NCBI GenBank assembly: GCA_049325595.1
Contig: JBMOLF010000001.1
Span: forward strand, 1 to 64,000
DNA: 64,000 bases
Direction: 5' to 3'
Origin: Candidatus Babelota bacterium
GTDB lineage: Bacteria > Babelota > Babeliae > Babelales > Vermiphilaceae
The position numbers are program-made. Position 1 is the first letter of the stretch; every line of letters starts with the position of its first letter. This document shows positions 1 to 57,000 of the stretch, piece after piece.

Positions 1-3000
1 TTTCTTCAAATTCTGTATCTTTAATTAAGTAATGCATTACAGCTTCCTTCTTGCTTTTTTTTGATTGTGATTAGAAGGAAGCTTACTTTTTTTTATAACT
101 TTTTTAAATTTCGTTCACAGAACCTAATTTCATTACCATCCTTTTTCAACTATTTGGTACTTGCTCAGTTACCACTTCAAATGAGGCTAAATATACAGCA
201 TCAGCAAATTCTTGTGCAGGAATAGTGGATGCTATACGATCTACACGCGCTGCTCTATTATCGATTGAAAATGAAAGTGGAAAAGTAGGATTAGTTAATG
301 AAACAGATATATGTTGCGGTCCACTTAATGAGGGCGTAACTAAAATATCGGGCGTAGTGACACTTGCCGTTACAAATCCATTTACTAGATTAGGAATAAT
401 TCTTAAAACATTTAATTGCAAACGTATTAACCCGGCAGTAGAAGGATCACCCGCAGGAATGATAAGATGAATTATTGAATTTATCTCATCATTGGTATTA
501 TCAGGCAAGACATAGTTAAAGGTAGCTTGACTTCCGATATTTAACGTATGAGTTATTAATGTTTCATTAGTTCCATATAGATTATTAAAAGTAAACACAG
601 GGGATGCTGCATTACCATTGGCAGTAGCCGCAGTAATCACGGTAGATTGCAAGAGCGAAGCAGTACCCGCAGCACCAGTTGAACCAACTGCTCCTCTATT
701 GCCCGTAAATCCCGTAAGCCCGGTACCTCCCATATTTCCGGCAGGACCAGTAAAACCGGTAAAACCCGTTGCTCCTTGTGGACCAGTATTGCCAGTTGCA
801 CCCGTTTCACCTTGTGCACCTGTTGCTCCTTGCGGGCCAAAACCAGTTACACCGGTAGCTAAACCAGTTACAGAAAAATTAGGCAATTGCAATACACCAC
901 AAACAACAAGTTTTTGAGTAACTAGCGCATTACCACCAACTTTAAGAACATTGGTTTTTAGGTTTTTTTTGGTAGAACAATAATCGGCTCTGAGCAAAGA
1001 ACAGAGCAATAATAACAAAATACTATAATATTTTATCATTTTTCATGCGTCCTCTTACTATAATTTTTGCTTTTTTAACCTAGAAAAAAACAAAAATACA
1101 ACGCAAGAAAATGATAAAATAAAAGATTATCCTCATAGCTAAGTTTAATTGCTATAAGGATAATTTATTAAGAAAGTTTCTTTAAAGTCGGAAATAAAAT
1201 AACATCTTTAATAGAACTACTATTAGTTAATAACATAGCAAGCCTATCAATACCAATACCAACACCTACAGCAGGAGGTAGGCCATATTCCAATGCAGTT
1301 ATAAATTCTGCATCGTAATGCATCGCTTCTGCATCCCCACCTGCATGTGCTTTAGCTTGTTGCTTAAAGCGGTCTGCTTGATCAAATGGATCGTTCAACT
1401 CATTAAATGCATTACTGATTTCCATGCCTGCTATAAATAATTCAAAGCGCGCTGCAAAGCGAGGATCTTCTGCATCTTTTTTTGCAAGCGGCGATACTTC
1501 AATAGGAAAATGTGTCACAAACGTTGGTTGTATCAATTTGTGCTCCACGAGTTCTTCAAACAAGGCATATACCTTTTCACTCCATGACGCACATTTGTTA
1601 GCGCATACAATTTTATGTTTTGTCAATGTTGCATCAATGGCATTTTCAGCTAAATCTGCATCACTAAGATTGCCATATTCACGCACCGCATCTAATAATT
1701 TGACCCGTCTAAATGGTTTATCAAAATCAAGTAATGTATCCCCAAAAGGAACCTGCGTTTGATTACATACTTCTTTTGCAACGGCTTGGAACATTTTTTC
1801 TACAAAATCCATTACCCAATGATAATCTTTATTGGCCGTATAAAACTCAAGCATAGTAAATTCAGGATTATGCCGCGTAGAAATACCTTCATTTCTAAAA
1901 TTACGATTAATTTCGTACACGCGATCAAAGCCACCAATTACTAGGCGCTTAAGATAAAGCTCAGGAGCAATACGCAGGTAAAAATCACTATCTAATGCAT
2001 TATGATGCGTAATAAATGGTTTTGCTGCCGCACCACCGGGAATTGGATGCAACATAGGAGTTTCTACTTCCATGTAGCCATGATTATCTAAAAAGCGTCG
2101 TAATGATCTAATTAATGCTGAACGTTTATAAAAACGCTCTCTGCTCTCTGGTGAACTAATTAAATCTAAATAACGCTGACGGTAAATAGTTTCGATATTG
2201 GTAAGTCCATGAAACTTTTCTGGTAGCGGATACAAACACTTACTCAGCAGTTCAATTTGCTTTACTGCAAGAGTAATTTCGCCCATTTTTGTTTTAAAAG
2301 AATGGCCCGAACACCAAATAATATCGCCAACATCATAAAACTTTTTAAATTGCTCATATTTTTCTTGTCCAATGTCATCTTGTCGAAGATAAATTTGAAC
2401 ACGGCCCACACTGTCCTGTATTACCGCAAATGATGCCTTACCATGATGACGCACTGTAATAATGCGGCCAACTATAGTATAATCGGGGGATTGCTGATCT
2501 TCTTTAAACTCTTTAACAATCTGATTAGTAGTACAGTTTACCTCTTTGGCAGCTGGCCATGGATCTAGGCCAAGTTCTTTCATGGCTTGTACTTTGTGTA
2601 CCCGAATAACATGTTCTTCAGGTACATGTGTCTCATGCAATGTTTCTAATGTCGGTGTTATAGTTTCGTTTTTATTTTTCATTGGTAACCAGACAAATGG
2701 GGTATAATGTTACACTTCAATTTTAAGTGTATCGCAGACTGGTGATTTTTTCTAGCAGCACGATTTGATCAATTGATCATAGAGATGCTGTACATAATCC
2801 CAATTCACCACCTGCCACCAAGCTGAAATGTAATCAGGGCGTCTATTTTGATATTTTAAATAATAAGCATGTTCCCACACATCAAGCCCCAGTATTGGCT
2901 GTAAATTGTATGAAATGGGGCAATCTTGGTTAGGGGTGGAAAGTATAGAAAGAGATTTATTTTTATCTAAACACAACCATGCCCAGCCACTACCAAATAC

Positions 3001-54000: not shown

Positions 54001-57000
54001 GTTGCACCGGTGATTCCAATAGCACAATCAGTTTGACTAGGCTGTGCTAATAAATTTTGATTAATAATGCGCCCACACACTATTAAATCACCACAAATTT
54101 TTACCTTATTGCGCACACACAAATTATTTAAAATTTTGAGCGCTTTATAACGGTCTATTACTGAATCATACTTATAATGGTTTTGTAGCCATTTTCCGTT
54201 GTTATCAAATTCGACATATATACATTGTTCGTGATCAGCAATGAATTCAATTTTTATGGTATTATCTATCAAGCAACCTTGGTAATTAAGATCTGTATGT
54301 GGTATTAAGCAAAAGGCAATACCATGTTCACCAAAACTCGAATCGATTATTCTTTGGTTATATTTGATTAACGTAATATGAGCATCAGATTCTCGTTGCT
54401 CTATTCCAATTAATAAATAGGTATCATTATCTATGTTGATAATTTTCCATAGAGTGTTATCTATACTAAAAGGTGTTTTTATATTCTCTTTATCTTCTGT
54501 TTTTATAACGACAAAACCATCACAGTTATCAATCGTAGGAGAAGAAATAACACAATCATTTAGGCCCAATAAAACAAATAATAGTATCTTTTTTAACTTC
54601 ATTACAAACACTCATCTCTTTTTTAAAAAATTATCGCTCTATTTGTGTTGCACAGGGCGTTACATTGCATACCGGATCGTTAATTATTTTTCCACATACA
54701 ATTAAATCACCACCAACACGCATACAGCGTCTAATATTTAATTGATCAAACGTACGAGTGATGGGATTTGCATATTCAAAGCAACTGCGGAACGCAATAT
54801 CTATAACTTCTTGAACCCTGAGATTGTCATTATTATCAAATACCAACCCAACAATGCTTGAGCCATTTTTAAAATAGCCAATAAAAAGGTCGTTATTTGG
54901 AAGTAATTCCCATAACAAAAGATCGATAATATATGGTGCTTTAAAACATATTAGATCATTATATTCTTGTACATCACTAATGTTTGGGCGATTTTTTTTA
55001 AACATGAAATAAGAATGATCAGCACCAGGAGCCACAATGCAATACAATGACTGATTGCTTGGCAATGCTATAGTATGCTTAATAACTTCTGTTTGTATAA
55101 AATTAATGAAAAAAGAAAGCATGCATAAGTACACACTTTTTATGAGGCTTTTTTGCTTCATTGCCATCCCCTACTTTTTAATATGCTTAATAGGGAACTT
55201 AACACGGGATGCTCAAAAATCAACCCTCAACTGATTTTTTTAGGAATACAAAATCAGCATATCTTATTAAATAATTGAACCGCCATTTTGGTAGAAAAAA
55301 TAAATAGGTTTCTATTTTTTTTAGCAAGGGATGATGCTTTTTGCATCACCCCCCATTCATTATGCTACACGTCTAATAAGAAAACTTGTCGCTTTACCAA
55401 CATTAGTAAATGTTGTAGTAGGTACAAATAAGGTCGTAGCTTCGTTCGCATTTGCTTGCACGACTAATGTTGTTCCAACCGTGCAATTTACCAAAAGAGT
55501 ATTTGATTGTAATATACCGAGATTATTAGCACTACCTGCAAAATAATTACCCGTGCTGTATGATGCGGTAGGAGCTGAGCCGTTAACTAAAAGACGAAGT
55601 CCTATACTAATATCATTACCTGCACCGCCAAGGTTAAAATATCCCGAATAGGAAACTTCATAAAGTCCTGCAAGTTGGCAAGTAAAGGTAATATTATCGG
55701 CTGTTGTCCAACCATTATTAGCAATATTAGCTGAAGGATAAGAAAGACTTGTCCAGGTATTAGCTGGTATGTTAATTGTTAGCGCTGCTGTATTATATCT
55801 ATCAATATATCCCTGCGGGGAATCTAATGAACCGGTATTGCCTTGTGGACCTTGAGGGCCAGTATTACCCGTTGATCCTTGTATACCTTGAGGCCCTGTT
55901 GCTCCTGTAGCACCCGGTAATCCCTGTGGACCAGTATTACCCGTTGATCCTTGCAATCCTTGAGCGCCGGTATTTCCTGTAGCACCCATTAATCCTTGTG
56001 GCCCCGTGTTACCTGTTGTACCTATGCCAGTATTCCCTTGTGGACCAGTGTTACCTTGTGGTCCTGTTGCACCTGTTGAACCCAAAACACTTAACCCACT
56101 AGCACTAATTGGTGAACCGTTAATTTCTGTCACAAAAATACTAGTAGCATTAATTGTTTGGGCATTAATAATATTGCTGTTGAGAATATTATTATTAATA
56201 ACATTAATATTAGCAATATCACTGTTAATGCTGGTGGCATTAATAATTTGTGAGTTAATTATTTGCGAATTAAGAGTAATAATATTAGCAGTATTTGCAT
56301 TCAAATTATTTGTGGTAACACTGTCAGCGGTAACTTGGCCACGCACCACAACATCACCACCAACACGTATTGAATTTCTTACACAAAGGGAATCGATAAT
56401 TTTACAACCACGAGTTCCTATATATTGAGCATCTATTACATTTGAACCTGAATTAAGATCGCTTTCATATTCTTCCAGCGCTTTTGCAATCTCATTATAG
56501 GTTTTTTGATCGCACCCCTGCATAGAGCTGAGTAAATCTACGGCGTCTTTTACTGTTTTTTTTGCATTTTCAATGGGCATACATGAATCACATTCAAGAT
56601 TTAACACTTGCTGTTGTAGTTCCGGTGCCATACCATACAATTTTTTTAATGCGTCAACAAGGTAGGGTGTAATAACCGCATAAGGCATTTTGCTGCTTGC
56701 AGAGACATTATTCATTAGCGCTAATAACAATAACAATAAATATTTTTTTGGTCGCTTCATTGTTCTCCCCTTTTAAAAGTAAGCTTTAGGTTAGAATAAA
56801 AAAAAATAATCGCCTCGATCAATGGTTAAAAAACTATTCAACATCAATTAAATGTGCAATTAACCTTATTCAATGAGTAGATGACACTAAATCAAACGGT
56901 AATAGTTTTTTTGCTTTTTCAAATCTATTTAGCAAATCTTGTTTGTCTTGTGCACCCAGATGAATAAGTCCATAGCGATAGCTTTTGCCATCTTGTAATA

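Follow-up and report, generated by a model that had tools for sequence, protein, structure and literature searches.

Length-matched collagen-stalk operons beside a glycan-enzyme cluster suggest a fibre coat in a Babelota bacterium

The window analysed here, comprising the first 64,000 nucleotides of contig JBMOLF010000001.1 (C1) in an assembly of a Candidatus Babelota bacterium (GCA_049325595.1, or G000 below), begins with an island of collagen-stalk genes that enclose a cluster of glycan enzymes, and the reading to which we lean, with modest confidence, is that this island encodes an exported fibre coat whose chains would form three-gene heterotrimers, be glycosylated outside the cytoplasm and bind amoebae. 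Three of the points that bear on this were absent from the initial annotation: the a1-a2-a3 three-gene operons, in which stalk lengths agree, the leaders of Sec type on enzymes of the glycan cluster and of GDP-fucose synthesis, and the lack of LPS and O-antigen machinery. Some 4% of the genome of this tiny amoeba-infecting bacterium would be given over to exported collagen-stalk fibres and the adjoining sugar-adding enzymes; counted together with the cluster span, the 29 fibre genes total 54,181 bp, or 4.2% of the 1,286,077-bp assembly, in line with the share first estimated.

The pattern (G..){6,} picks out 21 ORFs between 146 and 56760, every one on the minus strand, exactly the number originally counted, and all 21 score above the Pfam Collagen cut-off. 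Over the whole genome it occurs in 30 of 1646 ORFs of at least 80 aa (0 after residue shuffling); 29 of these are fibre genes, again as previously counted, the other being an unrelated protein of 973 aa on contig C22 with a linker of 8 triplets. The island is not, however, the unbroken 57 kb that had been described, for 1168-7430 holds LysRS, SOD, RapZ, an S41 protease and a DAO oxidoreductase instead. The suggested join between contig C23 and C1 is borne out by the complete genome of the congener (G246), where b3-b2-b1 orthologues are contiguous and followed by LysRS; no overlapping sequence was found between the two contig ends. Titles and abstracts combining Dependentiae with collagen offered nothing relevant, as had been reported. 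The main features are as follows.

146..1039, minus strand: b1-type collagen chain with leader, short N-part with pre-collagen motif, 20 triplets and a 170-aa head (31% identical to that of C23_35020); probably opens a b1-b2-b3 operon running on into contig C23
7713..11343, minus strand: operon U4, with a1 10180-11343, a2 8956-10170 and a3 7713-8939; stalk spans 87, 91 and 85; spacers of 9 and 16 bp with SD-like motifs
11487..12404, minus strand: lone chain of a1-like type, with 14 triplets and its head shortened to 122 aa; flanking gaps of 143 and 165 bp
12570..16186, minus strand: operon U3, with a1 14975-16186, a2 13773-14963 and a3 12570-13760; spans 89, 89 and 90
16458..20534, minus strand: operon U2, with a1 19164-20534, a2 17788-19152 and a3 16458-17777; spans 141, 145 and 142
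20797..24335, minus strand: operon U1, with a1 23121-24335, a2 21973-23166 (true start probably at 23112) and a3 20797-21960; spans 90, 91 and 91
24444..41406, both strands: glycan-enzyme cluster of 18 ORFs
41473..43374, minus strand: single gene with DUF5122 propeller, 20-23 triplets and c-type head
43452..46136, minus strand: propeller chain (DUF5122) with 31 triplets (108 in its G246 orthologue) and a different, 385-aa C-terminal domain (weak DUF1565 match)
46151..48448, minus strand: longest stalk, 131 triplets with a span of 400 residues, and c-type head
48585..50441, minus strand: propeller chain (DUF5122) with 16-19 triplets and c-type head (BclA_C, 39.7 bits)
50573..51181, minus strand: head-only ORF, with leader and c-type head but no collagen stalk
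51364..55167, minus strand: tight three-ORF group, with an N-only ORF 54631-55167 (leader, N-part, pre-collagen motif, then stop) and chains 52809-54611 (span 248) and 51364-52806 (span 246)
55360..56760, minus strand: single gene with leader, N-part with Asn/Ile-rich repeat, 28 triplets and c-type head

The single architecture attributed to these genes needs to be loosened, since their N-parts vary and two of the C-terminal parts are not detectably BclA- or C1q-like. An N-terminal hydrophobic helix is indeed present, but it is built like a Sec signal peptide, detected by our own heuristic in 19 of the 21 window collagen ORFs. The ~90-aa N-domain ascribed to all of the fibre genes is confined to the 13 a-type genes at 7713-24335, while the remainder have propellers, or N-parts that are short or of another kind, in place of this helical domain; the DUF5122 propellers were correctly assigned, to ORFs 41473, 43452 and 48585. 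Before the stalk there is a conserved, often Cys-rich pre-collagen motif, K..N.L.V.....I.GNL.V.G.I, and over 913 stalk triplets Y is Thr in 59% of cases and X mostly A, P, N or F.

The AF2 model of 10180-11343 reproduces the earlier one: residues 30-116 again have pLDDT >90, the stalk is disordered, and residues 244-385 form a beta-sandwich. Its head matches that of F-BclA (9h38) with Z 20.1 and an rmsd of 1.9 over 136 aa, BclA with Z 16.9 and C1q-C with Z 15.2, and a PDB profile search found 9h38, adiponectin, C1q and BclA; the nearest solved relatives are F-BclA, BclA, Bdellovibrio fibre heads and phage receptor-binding proteins. In all solved relatives this C1q/BclA/TNF-type jelly-roll is the trimerising and ligand-binding end, and the predicted head of the same type is likewise C-terminal here. 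At the Pfam cut-off, BclA_C can be assigned to four ORFs only (8956, 10180, 48585 and, with exactly the cut-off score of 38 bits, 19164), elsewhere falling short, with sub-threshold matches in seven further collagen ORFs and the head-only ORF 50573. The c-type and a-type heads are homologous (hhalign 97.7%), whereas the b-type head of 146-1039 has no detectable likeness to the a-type heads (hhalign 0.2%) and drew no match in a PDB sequence search. Sequence and model together support a large family of putatively exported proteins in which a collagen stalk is joined to a trimer-type head of the C1q/BclA kind.

As to where such proteins would reside, the alternative to a surface coat, namely a periplasmic matrix or soluble secreted proteins acting inside the host, seems to us quite unlikely. 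It would accord with the fact that no outer-membrane anchor, autotransporter barrel or consistent lipobox could be recognised in the collagen proteins and that the N-domain has no known fold (best Foldseek E 1.8, best VIA Z 5.7), as well as with the electron-dense periplasmic material described for C. destructans (PMC6561590); in addition, the TEM note on the congener does not mention fibres in its Announcement section (PMC8812299). Set against this, the nearest solved heads are the distal tips of surface fibres or receptor-binding proteins, the heads diverge fast between congeners (35-72% identity, versus 56-82% for housekeeping neighbours), and G000 has two secretins and two GspF/PilC-type genes, so that surface display might possibly proceed through one of two secretin systems.

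The 13 a-type genes comprise four tandem a1-a2-a3 operons (U1-U4) and the lone a1-like chain. Spacers within operons are 8-17 bp, with SD-like motifs before the genes, and 143-271 bp separate one operon from the next. Of the terminator-like hairpins on the gene strand, the three with the longest stems lie just after the a3 genes of U4 (7705-7677), U2 (16433-16413) and U1 (20668-20636). The a2 and a3 chains each form a clade (95/91 and 95/80, respectively) with one member per operon, and a1 is a grade. Stalk lengths are about 90 or about 142 residues, alike inside an operon and unlike between operons, and the other three-gene units have spans of 39/33/35, 54/54/54 and 60/57/57. Spans this tight arose in 0 of 100,000 free permutations and in 6 of 576 within chain type, although it must be remembered that these permutations and the rank tests overstate independence, as the operons share ancestry both in one genome and between two congeners. 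In eight genomes, adjacent collagen genes no more than 30 bp apart differ in span by at most 8 residues in 30 of 39 pairs, compared with 5 of 32 pairs spaced more widely (34 of 39 and 4 of 32, respectively, with a 20-aa break tolerance), and 15 of the 22 tight runs consist of exactly three genes.

The same rule is kept in the congener, whose a-type units of ~77, ~100, ~112, ~142 and ~89 residues are each matched internally, and also in two other genera. Units in G236 measure 244/245/248 and 279/278/275 and one in G048 149/148/150, even with heads just 27-54% identical within a unit; the G048 unit and the second G236 unit each form their own clade, which suggests independent triplications. Recent gene conversion is unlikely to be responsible for the matching, as stalk DNA within an operon is 52-63% identical with no shared word longer than 22 nt. 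There are exceptions: the neighbours 43452 and 46151 have spans of 93 and 400, the G246 genes 7264/8445/9597 have 88/63/81 under the strict break rule, several G246 collagen genes are split or shortened, and the group at 51364-55167 contains only two full chains. Pre-stalk cysteines also differ by chain type, a1 having 4-7 (10 intact a1 genes), and in 9 of 11 units those of a2 and a3 are complementary; a search of the genome for a DsbA-type oxidase that could serve the proposed Cys knot found none.

What all this suggests to us is that the operons encode natural ABC heterotrimers. The parallel is with C1q, itself a mixed-chain trimer, and the proposal departs from the characterised bacterial collagens, which are described as homotrimers. 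It is possible, but on balance doubtful, that every chain is in fact homotrimeric and that the units are simply duplicates of a whole block, their equal lengths being due to shared ancestry or to selection that keeps co-expressed fibres at the same height. The heads of BclA and F-BclA are reported to be homotrimers (PMC12357932), single genes and a two-gene group also occur, and the a-type units of G000 and G246 were clearly duplicated from one ancestral block; the ~90-residue stalks of U1, U3 and U4 could indeed be a matter of simple inheritance. However, the chain types predate the unit duplications, yet U2 and the G246 units shifted in length as threes (~77, 100, 112 and 142, compared with ~90). 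Selection for equal height would predict equal lengths between units, which are not observed, and loosely spaced neighbours are unmatched; moreover, the independent triplications are matched despite their dissimilar heads, and a2 and a3 complement each other in Cys content. Under the heterotrimer scheme, each a1-a2-a3, b1-b2-b3 or d1-d2-d3 operon would supply one chain of each kind to a single ABC triple helix with a mixed head, while lone genes would give homotrimers.

The glycan cluster lies amid the fibre genes as was originally noted, and contains a GT2+GT10 fusion, two GT2, a GT6 (168 bits), a GT10, two FkbM and two Methyltransf_11 genes, together with two weak GT2 and five ORFs without a family. 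Two transferases named previously fall below threshold, FUT8/NodZ at 15.7 and 15.2 bits (cut-offs 27.6 and 28.3) and CAP59/Anp1 at 26.7 and 20.5 bits (cut-off 28.8), and "eukaryote-type" is a loose description of a cluster that has two sub-threshold families and a GT6 whose nearest solved relative is the bacterial BoGT6a (E 8e-49, versus 3e-41 for human ABO).

These enzymes appear to carry export leaders. Leaders were detected in 16 of 17 non-overlapping cluster genes, compared with 605 of 1218 over the whole genome and none of the window's 9 leaderless housekeeping ORFs, a modest enrichment (P ~1e-4) using a heuristic that flags half of the genome; the one remaining cluster gene may be cytoplasmic. 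For comparison, C. destructans is reported to have signal peptides on 44% of its CDS and to lack LPS genes (PMC6561590). Residue 27 of the cluster GT6 aligns with residue 3 of BoGT6a, residue 20 of Gmd aligns with residue 2-3 of solved Gmd enzymes, and in the C10 operon that carries the GDP-mannose dehydratase and GDP-fucose synthase genes the Pfam domains begin at residues 22-32. Among 12 loci examined in other genomes the GT6 leader is present in 5/5 genomes caught by the pattern, and the Gmd leader is kept in G246, G242 and one of two G236 copies.

These hydrophobic N-termini might instead be uncleaved anchors that keep the catalytic domain cytoplasmic, or might arise from wrongly chosen start codons, with glycosylation completed before Sec export as occurs for HMW1 and AIDA-I; this we regard as unlikely. 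Nucleotide sugars and NADPH are normally cytoplasmic, the heuristic is crude, the second G236 Gmd copy is leaderless, the Gmd of G195 contains an internal ATG accompanied by an SD-like motif (and may be cytoplasmic), and the GlmU-like ORF has an internal Met. But there is no usable start codon between the Gmd leader and the Rossmann motif in G000, G246 or G242, the leaders start with Lys or Arg followed by a hydrophobic stretch, an order that under the positive-inside rule would place the C-terminal domain outside, and they are retained across genera though their sequences have diverged, whereas housekeeping enzymes of the window have none.

No LpxC, Wzy_C/WaaL, Bac_transf, STT3 or Polysacc_synt was detected in G000 (95% complete), nor were genes found there for an oligosaccharyltransferase, flippase, polymerase/ligase or initiating phosphoglycosyl transferase. 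Given these absences and the leaders on the cluster and GDP-fucose enzymes, glycosylation probably takes place outside the cytoplasm, on the side where one expects the Thr-rich stalks. Such periplasmic Leloir glycosylation would require nucleotide sugars and NADPH to be present outside the cytoplasm; the only nucleotidyltransferases seen in G000 are GalU-like and GlmU-like, with no ManC (names read off sequences). A chain would thus comprise Sec leader, pre-collagen motif, Thr-rich (G-X-T)n stalk and jelly-roll head, with fucose and methylated sugars being added to the exported stalks either within the periplasm or on the side that faces the host, using nucleotide sugars that are probably host-derived. 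Glycosylated fibres with varied heads may then bind the amoeba surface and promote attachment or uptake. The congener infects Vermamoeba (PMC8812299), the collagen regions of BclA are reported to bear O-glycans (PMC12357932) and the glycosylated fibrils of mimivirus to lead to amoebal phagocytosis (PMC9614988); it is to the host-binding or uptake role of BclA naps and mimivirus fibrils that these fibres may be likened.

Whether the cluster serves the fibres at all is a separate matter. GT6 and GT10 enzymes in other bacteria produce blood-group mimics on LPS, and the cluster could conceivably build some other envelope glycoconjugate, or consist of secreted effectors that remodel host glycans (Lewis- or ABO-like epitopes), its siting being incidental. 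We hold this to be a tentative alternative, less probable than a role in fibre glycosylation. By hand count of 261 genomes, GT6 occurs in 63 and an a-type head in 72, with both in 31, leaving 32 genomes of the order with GT6 and no such head, a figure that is an upper bound on head-less genomes as the A1 profile misses b-type heads; the two lie far apart in at least seven (G195, G243, G253, G254, G255, G260 and G005). Many Dependentiae proteins with signal peptides are also thought to act on the host (PMC6561590). Against this stand the absence from the genes found of any for lipid A or the other glycoconjugate steps listed above, and the hundreds of Thr that the stalks would present at the position glycosylated in BclA. 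In view of the distances elsewhere, the link between cluster and fibres depends mainly on neighbourhood, in two congeners and in G236 and G242, where GT6 is within 7 kb of collagen genes. The cluster is set between collagen arrays, with the same syntenic arrangement in the congener 'Ca. Dependentiae bacterium Noda2021'; cluster orthologues in G246 are 55-83% identical, with their order kept. As a separate observation, the GT6 of G246 has an in-frame TAG and may be inactive.

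A regular-expression scan for at least six consecutive G-X-Y triplets picks out 21 ORFs in the first 64 kb of contig C1 (part of a 1.29-Mb, 24-contig assembly with 35% GC), all of them on the minus strand between positions 146 and 56760, and all 21 also exceed the 27.2-bit cut-off of the Pfam Collagen family, with scores of 32.9-176.9 bits. Residue-shuffled ORFs gave the (G-X-Y)6 pattern in 0 of 1646 cases, and the observation itself, an island of collagen genes together with a cluster of glycan genes, is real and far beyond chance. Genome-wide the pattern occurs in 30 ORFs, one of which is a 973-aa protein on contig C22 that has 8 triplets as a linker only; setting this aside leaves the 29 fibre genes counted in the initial annotation, and its estimate that about 4% of the DNA is involved agrees with the 4.2% of the assembly obtained when the 16,963-bp glycan cluster (24444-41406) is added to these genes. 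The island is not continuous, as had been thought, being broken at 1168-7430 by genes for LysRS, SOD, RapZ, an S41 protease and a DAO oxidoreductase. That contig C23 adjoins C1, as had also been suggested, is backed by 'Candidatus Dependentiae bacterium Noda2021' (G246, 1,222,284 bp; a member of the same genus and the source of the closest named protein), in which the corresponding b3-b2-b1 genes are contiguous, the two contig ends themselves having no sequence in common. The earlier interpretation is therefore supported in part and can be sharpened.

Stalks in the window run from 14 to 131 triplets. Among 913 triplets, Thr accounts for 59% of Y positions, Gln for 17% and Pro for only 2%, while X is Ala, Pro, Asn or Phe; these are stalks of the G-X-T type known from BclA. 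The presence of Phe at 12% of X positions (106 GFT among the 913 triplets) is not usual in collagens and could have a bearing on lateral packing. The collagen genes have a GC content of 0.40-0.48 as against 0.35, the glycan cluster being at genome level; horizontal transfer, which might be read from this excess, was rejected, since the excess is explained by the codons for Gly, Thr, Ala and Pro.

All of the chains begin with a basic and then hydrophobic stretch of signal-peptide form, and in every chain type the motif K..N.L.V.....I.GNL.V.G.I is conserved just before the stalk. They can be grouped according to their C-terminal heads as follows.

Groups of chains by C-terminal head
7713-24335, minus strand: 13 genes with a-type heads
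c-type and d-type heads: 8 in the window, including the head-only ORF 50573, with three more at 65897-68677
146-1039, minus strand: b-type head, with five further b-type genes on C23
ORF 43452, minus strand: an odd C-terminus of 385 aa

In an AF2 model of 10180-11343 (a-type), the N-domain (residues 30-116) is helical and confidently predicted, the stalk is disordered and the head forms a beta-sandwich. Structurally, the model head comes closest to F-BclA, which forms the tip fibrillum on the F-ENA appendages of Bacillus (9h38; Z 20.1, rmsd 1.9 over 136 residues, 28% identity), followed by BclA itself (1wck, Z 16.9) and C1q-C (6z6v_C, Z 15.2), and it also matches many proteins of the TNF family, the heads of Bdellovibrio fibres and the receptor-binding heads of phages; the head sequence profile retrieves the same PDB entries, including C1q and adiponectin chains. 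A head of the BclA_C/C1q kind had previously been assigned to all chains. The assignment is borne out for the a-type and c-type heads, which are homologous to one another (hhalign 97.7%), with BclA_C at cut-off on 4 ORFs and sub-threshold on 8, but it does not extend to 43452 or to the b-type head of 146-1039, which has no detectable likeness to the a-type (hhalign 0.2%) and no family, profile or PDB sequence match. As for Pfam C1q (PF00386), its sole match scores 16.6 bits (cut-off 23.7) and is to the head-only ORF 50573-51181, so that sequence does not place the heads in the C1q family, although in the model the likeness of fold is clear. The N-domain, folded alone, reaches a pLDDT of 84, and a comparison with solved structures gave nothing convincing (best Foldseek E 1.8; best VIA Z 5.7, which is below the noise level given by VIA).

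Within the order, 72 of 261 genomes encode a member of the head family, whose profile finds 3908 matches at E <=1e-3 in a library of 1.84 billion proteins, while a small word search yielded 7 matches, all close relatives. By our own count about 46 of the best 150 profile matches have three head domains in one chain; one such triple-head protein is named as an S-layer protein of Aneurinibacillus soli, and P0008 and P0009 each combine a leader and three heads with a stalk rich in Pro and Thr and a membrane anchor at the C-terminus. Such single-chain triple heads show that, within this family, non-identical heads can pack three per unit. In 55360-56760 and at C1:65897-68677, Asn/Ile/Thr-rich short repeats, which from their sequence look like a beta-helical or coiled spacer, lie between the pre-collagen motif and the stalk.

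Apart from a lone short gene (11487-12404), the a-type genes form four tandem units, each a1-a2-a3 in order of transcription, and trees of the heads group a2 (support 95/91) and a3 (95/80) each as a clade in which every unit has one member, a1 being a grade. Spacers inside the units are of only 8-17 bp, with an SD-like motif ahead of each ATG, as against gaps of 143-271 bp between units, and, of the terminator-like hairpins on the gene strand, the three with the longest stems lie directly 3' of a3 in units U4, U2 and U1. A promoter scan was uninformative (47 sites against 49.4 expected). No RNA data set was listed as containing U3 (12570-16186), and one DNA data set listed for it may be the source sample. 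Within each unit the three stalks are of closely similar length.

Stalk spans in three-gene units (residues, three chains of each unit)
U1, 20797-24335, minus strand: 90 / 91 / 91
U2, 16458-20534, minus strand: 141 / 145 / 142
U3, 12570-16186, minus strand: 89 / 89 / 90
U4, 7713-11343, minus strand: 87 / 91 / 85
d-type trio: 39 / 33 / 35
b-type unit on C23: 54 / 54 / 54
b-type unit across C1 and C23: 60 / 57 / 57

Free permutation of the stalks gave a match as tight as this in 0 of 100,000 trials, and permutation within chain type only in 6 of 576, although units within and between congeners are kin, so that these statistics overstate independence. The a-type units of G246, of about 77, 100, 112, 142, 142 and 89 residues, are each matched internally. 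The same is seen further afield, in units of another genus (G236; 244/245/248 and 279/278/275) and of another family (G048; 149/148/150), where heads within a unit are only 27-54% identical; the G048 unit and the second G236 unit each form a clade of their own, implying that three-gene units arose more than once. Over all loci examined, the stalk lengths of collagen neighbours no more than 30 bp apart are within 8 residues of each other in 30 of 39 pairs, compared with 5 of 32 at wider spacing (34/39 and 4/32 under a looser rule for breaks), and 15 of 22 tight runs comprise exactly three genes.

Equal stalks might in principle result from gene conversion; however, stalk DNA inside units is only 52-63% identical and has no long words in common, so conversion does not explain the match in length and was rejected. 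The most economical reading of the genes is that each contributes one chain to each triple helix, giving an ABC heterotrimer as in C1q, and the layout of the three-gene units argues for heterotrimers. A cluster of Cys residues lies in the 50 residues ahead of the stalk, the heads being almost Cys-free; a1 is always Cys-rich, while in 9 of 11 units the Cys of a2 complement those of a3. Despite these Cys-rich motifs in exported proteins, no member of the DsbA-type families PF01323 and PF13462 was found in the whole genome, which leaves the idea of a disulfide knot without an enzyme behind it.

There are exceptions to the matching of lengths, namely the pair 43452/46151, one G246 unit, and a group made up of two full chains and an N-only ORF. 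This last ORF (54631-55167) has a leader, the N-part and the pre-collagen motif and then stops, 20 bp upstream of the matched pair 52809/51364, while 183 bp downstream of the same pair lies the head-only ORF 50573-51181, consisting of a leader and a c-type head; these two ORFs may be what is left of a third chain, or may cap a fibre made of two chains. ORF 43452-46136 and its G246 orthologue (L034:17714-19996) are 79% identical over the 385-aa C-terminal domain, with 31 and 108 triplets respectively, from which it appears that the stalk length of stand-alone genes is very labile.

The glycan cluster lies among the collagen arrays, and its recognisable content is as follows.

Families in the glycan cluster
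24444-26264: GT2+GT10 fusion; GT10 66.6 bits against a cut-off of 23.9
27081: Methyltransf_11 (Pfam); weak also on 27900
28647 and 32275: GT2 (Pfam); weak also on 36028 and 39319
29618: GT6; Glyco_transf_6 168.2 bits against a cut-off of 25
30367-31317: GT10; 57.3 bits against a cut-off of 23.9
38596 and 40633: FkbM methyltransferases (Pfam)

The GT6 and GT10 genes of the initial annotation are thus confirmed as Pfam domains over cut-off, while the FUT8/NodZ-like gene (FUT8_N_cat 15.7 against 27.6, NodZ 15.2 against 28.3) and the CAP59/Anp1-like gene (26.7 and 20.5, both against 28.8) fall under it. Five ORFs of the cluster (26245, 31310, 34248, 37007 and 37817) have no Pfam family; for 34248, the Atlas offers unnamed clusters only, plus a GT2 lead at 0.94. 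The GT6 matches the bacterial enzyme BoGT6a with E 8e-49 and retains a DxD motif, reading LDADM (DAD) where BoGT6a reads FNANL (NAN).

What had been overlooked is that the enzymes of the cluster carry leaders. In 16 of its 17 non-overlapping genes a basic and then hydrophobic leader stands directly ahead of the catalytic domain; for instance, residue 27 of the GT6 aligns to residue 3 of the leaderless Bacteroides enzyme, and the same form of leader is present on the GT6 of all 5 other genomes caught by the pattern among 12 loci examined. Leaders are found, too, on all four products of an operon at C10:44334-48167 (NUDIX, Gmd-like, Fcl-like and Gmd), which is adjoined by a gene for an ankyrin-repeat protein that also has one. 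The Gmd matches solved enzymes with E 1e-155 to 1e-158, the alignment starting from its residue 20, and no start codon lies between leader and Rossmann motif in this genome, in G246 or in G242, another genome of the order; in G236 there are two copies of Gmd about 2 kb apart, one with the leader and one without. The heuristic used to call leaders flags 605 of 1218 ORFs genome-wide, so that with half of the genome flagged the enrichment in the cluster (P about 1e-4) is modest; of the leaderless housekeeping ORFs of the window it flags 0 of 9. The genome-wide proportion agrees with the 44% of proteins with signal peptides given for Chromulinavorax destructans in the part of its description available (PMC6561590).

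It is relevant to ask what else such a cluster could serve. Profiles for LpxC, Wzy_C/WaaL, Bac_transf, STT3 and Polysacc_synt (Wzy_C being a family that includes PglL-type O-oligosaccharyltransferases) have no matches in this genome, which is 95% complete, whereas as controls they match in 4 to 13 of 14 genomes, so that a route through LPS, O-antigen, capsule or en-bloc transfer is not supported. Our reading of the sequences found no ManC-type enzyme, only GalU-like and GlmU-like ORFs, and the search for a nucleotide-sugar transporter gave only an 18-bit sub-threshold match. The genome encodes two secretins and two GspF/PilC-type proteins. The simplest model, we infer, would be one in which the Thr-rich fibres encounter the cluster enzymes outside the cytoplasm, with nucleotide sugars drawn from the host.

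That the cluster serves the fibres is suggested because it sits between collagen arrays in two congeners, because a GT6 gene lies close to collagen genes in G236 and G242, because BclA provides a precedent, and because no other acceptor pathway was found. Against this, GT6 and the a-type head co-occur in only 31 of 261 genomes by hand count (63 with GT6, 72 with the head), and in at least 7 genomes the two are far apart.

By kind, then, this is a BclA-like collagen fibre family. In BclA and F-BclA of the Bacillus cereus group (in the exosporium nap and F-ENA tip fibrillum, respectively) there is likewise a G-X-T-rich stalk with a C-terminal TNF/C1q-like jelly-roll head, and the parts available of one account describe O-glycosylation of the collagen regions, with glycosyltransferase genes nearby (PMC12357932). 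The bacterium here is, however, a diderm intracellular parasite rather than a spore-former; N-termini have the form of Sec leaders where BclA has an exosporium-targeting sequence; the paralogues number 29 and vary in their N-domains; and there are three-gene operons whose stalks match, implying heterotrimers, and glycan enzymes with leaders. In C1q a collagen stalk and gC1q-fold head are similarly found on three different chains from adjacent genes, a trimer of the three kinds being proposed in the present case. The A, B and C genes of C1q lie side by side, and their products, which like the present chains have chain-specific interruptions of the stalk and Cys N-terminal to it, form one ABC trimer. 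Unlike C1q, the present chains are bacterial, Thr-rich and poor in Pro. Among other collagen-like proteins, Legionella Lcl is an adhesin for host attachment secreted through the type II system, and Pasteuria has many paralogues linked to host specificity; both are known or assumed to be homotrimers, and we know of no three-gene operons or exported glycan enzymes described for either.

A further parallel is with the giant viruses. According to the available sections of one account, glycosylated fibrils coat the amoeba-associated mimivirus particle and trigger amoebal phagocytosis, and Megavirinae have their own clusters of glycosyltransferases, methyltransferases and nucleotide-sugar enzymes and encode collagen-like proteins (PMC9614988). 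The viral enzymes act in the host cytoplasm, outside any bacterial one, and do so without the Sec leaders seen here, while the glycan carriers of the fibrils are not, as is proposed here, C1q-headed collagens. No sequence relationship between the viral and the present proteins was seen, though no scan of viral contigs was made.

Gene order over the whole region is conserved in G246, running from the b-type unit through housekeeping genes, a-type array and glycan cluster to the orthologue of 43452, and identities are 56-82% for housekeeping proteins and 55-83% for glycan enzymes, but only 35-72% for collagen chains, which are the fastest-diverging genes of the region between the congeners. A few G246 collagen genes, including several a1, are split or truncated, and its GT6 orthologue (G246:C1:718871-719542) has one in-frame TAG; these are either pseudogenes or assembly errors. 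Where relatives of the head have been solved, they form the distal ends of fibres and bind the ligand, and this, taken with the glycosylation of BclA, the mimivirus precedent and the fast divergence of the chains, favours, by analogy, a glycosylated, variable fibre coat that would bind the amoeba.

It is tempting to go further and to suppose that C1q-like collagens from three-gene operons, their chains co-evolving in stalk length, assemble as ABC heterotrimers, undergo glycosylation outside the cytoplasm through Leloir glycosyltransferases and methyltransferases that are exported by Sec, and are supplied by an exported pathway from GDP-mannose to GDP-fucose acting on host nucleotide sugars; the cell would then have what amounts to an externalised, Golgi-like compartment for glycosylation, where a variable coat of fibres is built for entry into amoebae. 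As a whole this must be regarded as a tentative scheme, possible rather than probable. Two of its elements appear to be unreported, namely operon-encoded, C1q-like collagens that are probably heterotrimeric, and glycosylation and GDP-fucose machinery carrying predicted export leaders. A literature search on bacterial collagen-like heterotrimers gave, among the matches listed, only titles on engineered or animal collagens, and a 2022 review, in the part available, regards the lack of natural heterotrimers as limiting both collagen research and collagen materials (PMC8968730). Homotrimers are the form in which bacterial collagens are generally treated.

If the scheme is true, operon-encoded ABC collagens with small chain-selecting heads would provide a simple, expressible system for the study of chain selection and register, and an intracellular bacterium would be glycosylating outside its own cytoplasm with host metabolites, which would alter the reading of Dependentiae metabolism and of their very large secretome. 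To our knowledge little is known of how Dependentiae enter amoebae, and the entry hypothesis is testable in the cultivable relative Noda2021 in Vermamoeba. This organism infects Vermamoeba vermiformis, and the available part of the report on it mentions no fibres (PMC8812299).

Adjoining the last collagen gene, at 56870-60084, are genes for an ATP-grasp ligase and for GlmS (glucosamine-6-phosphate synthase), both leaderless, of which GlmS could feed the supply of amino sugars. The sole RNA gene found in the window, at 60710-60785, is a tRNA-Thr(CGU), Thr being the commonest residue of the stalks.
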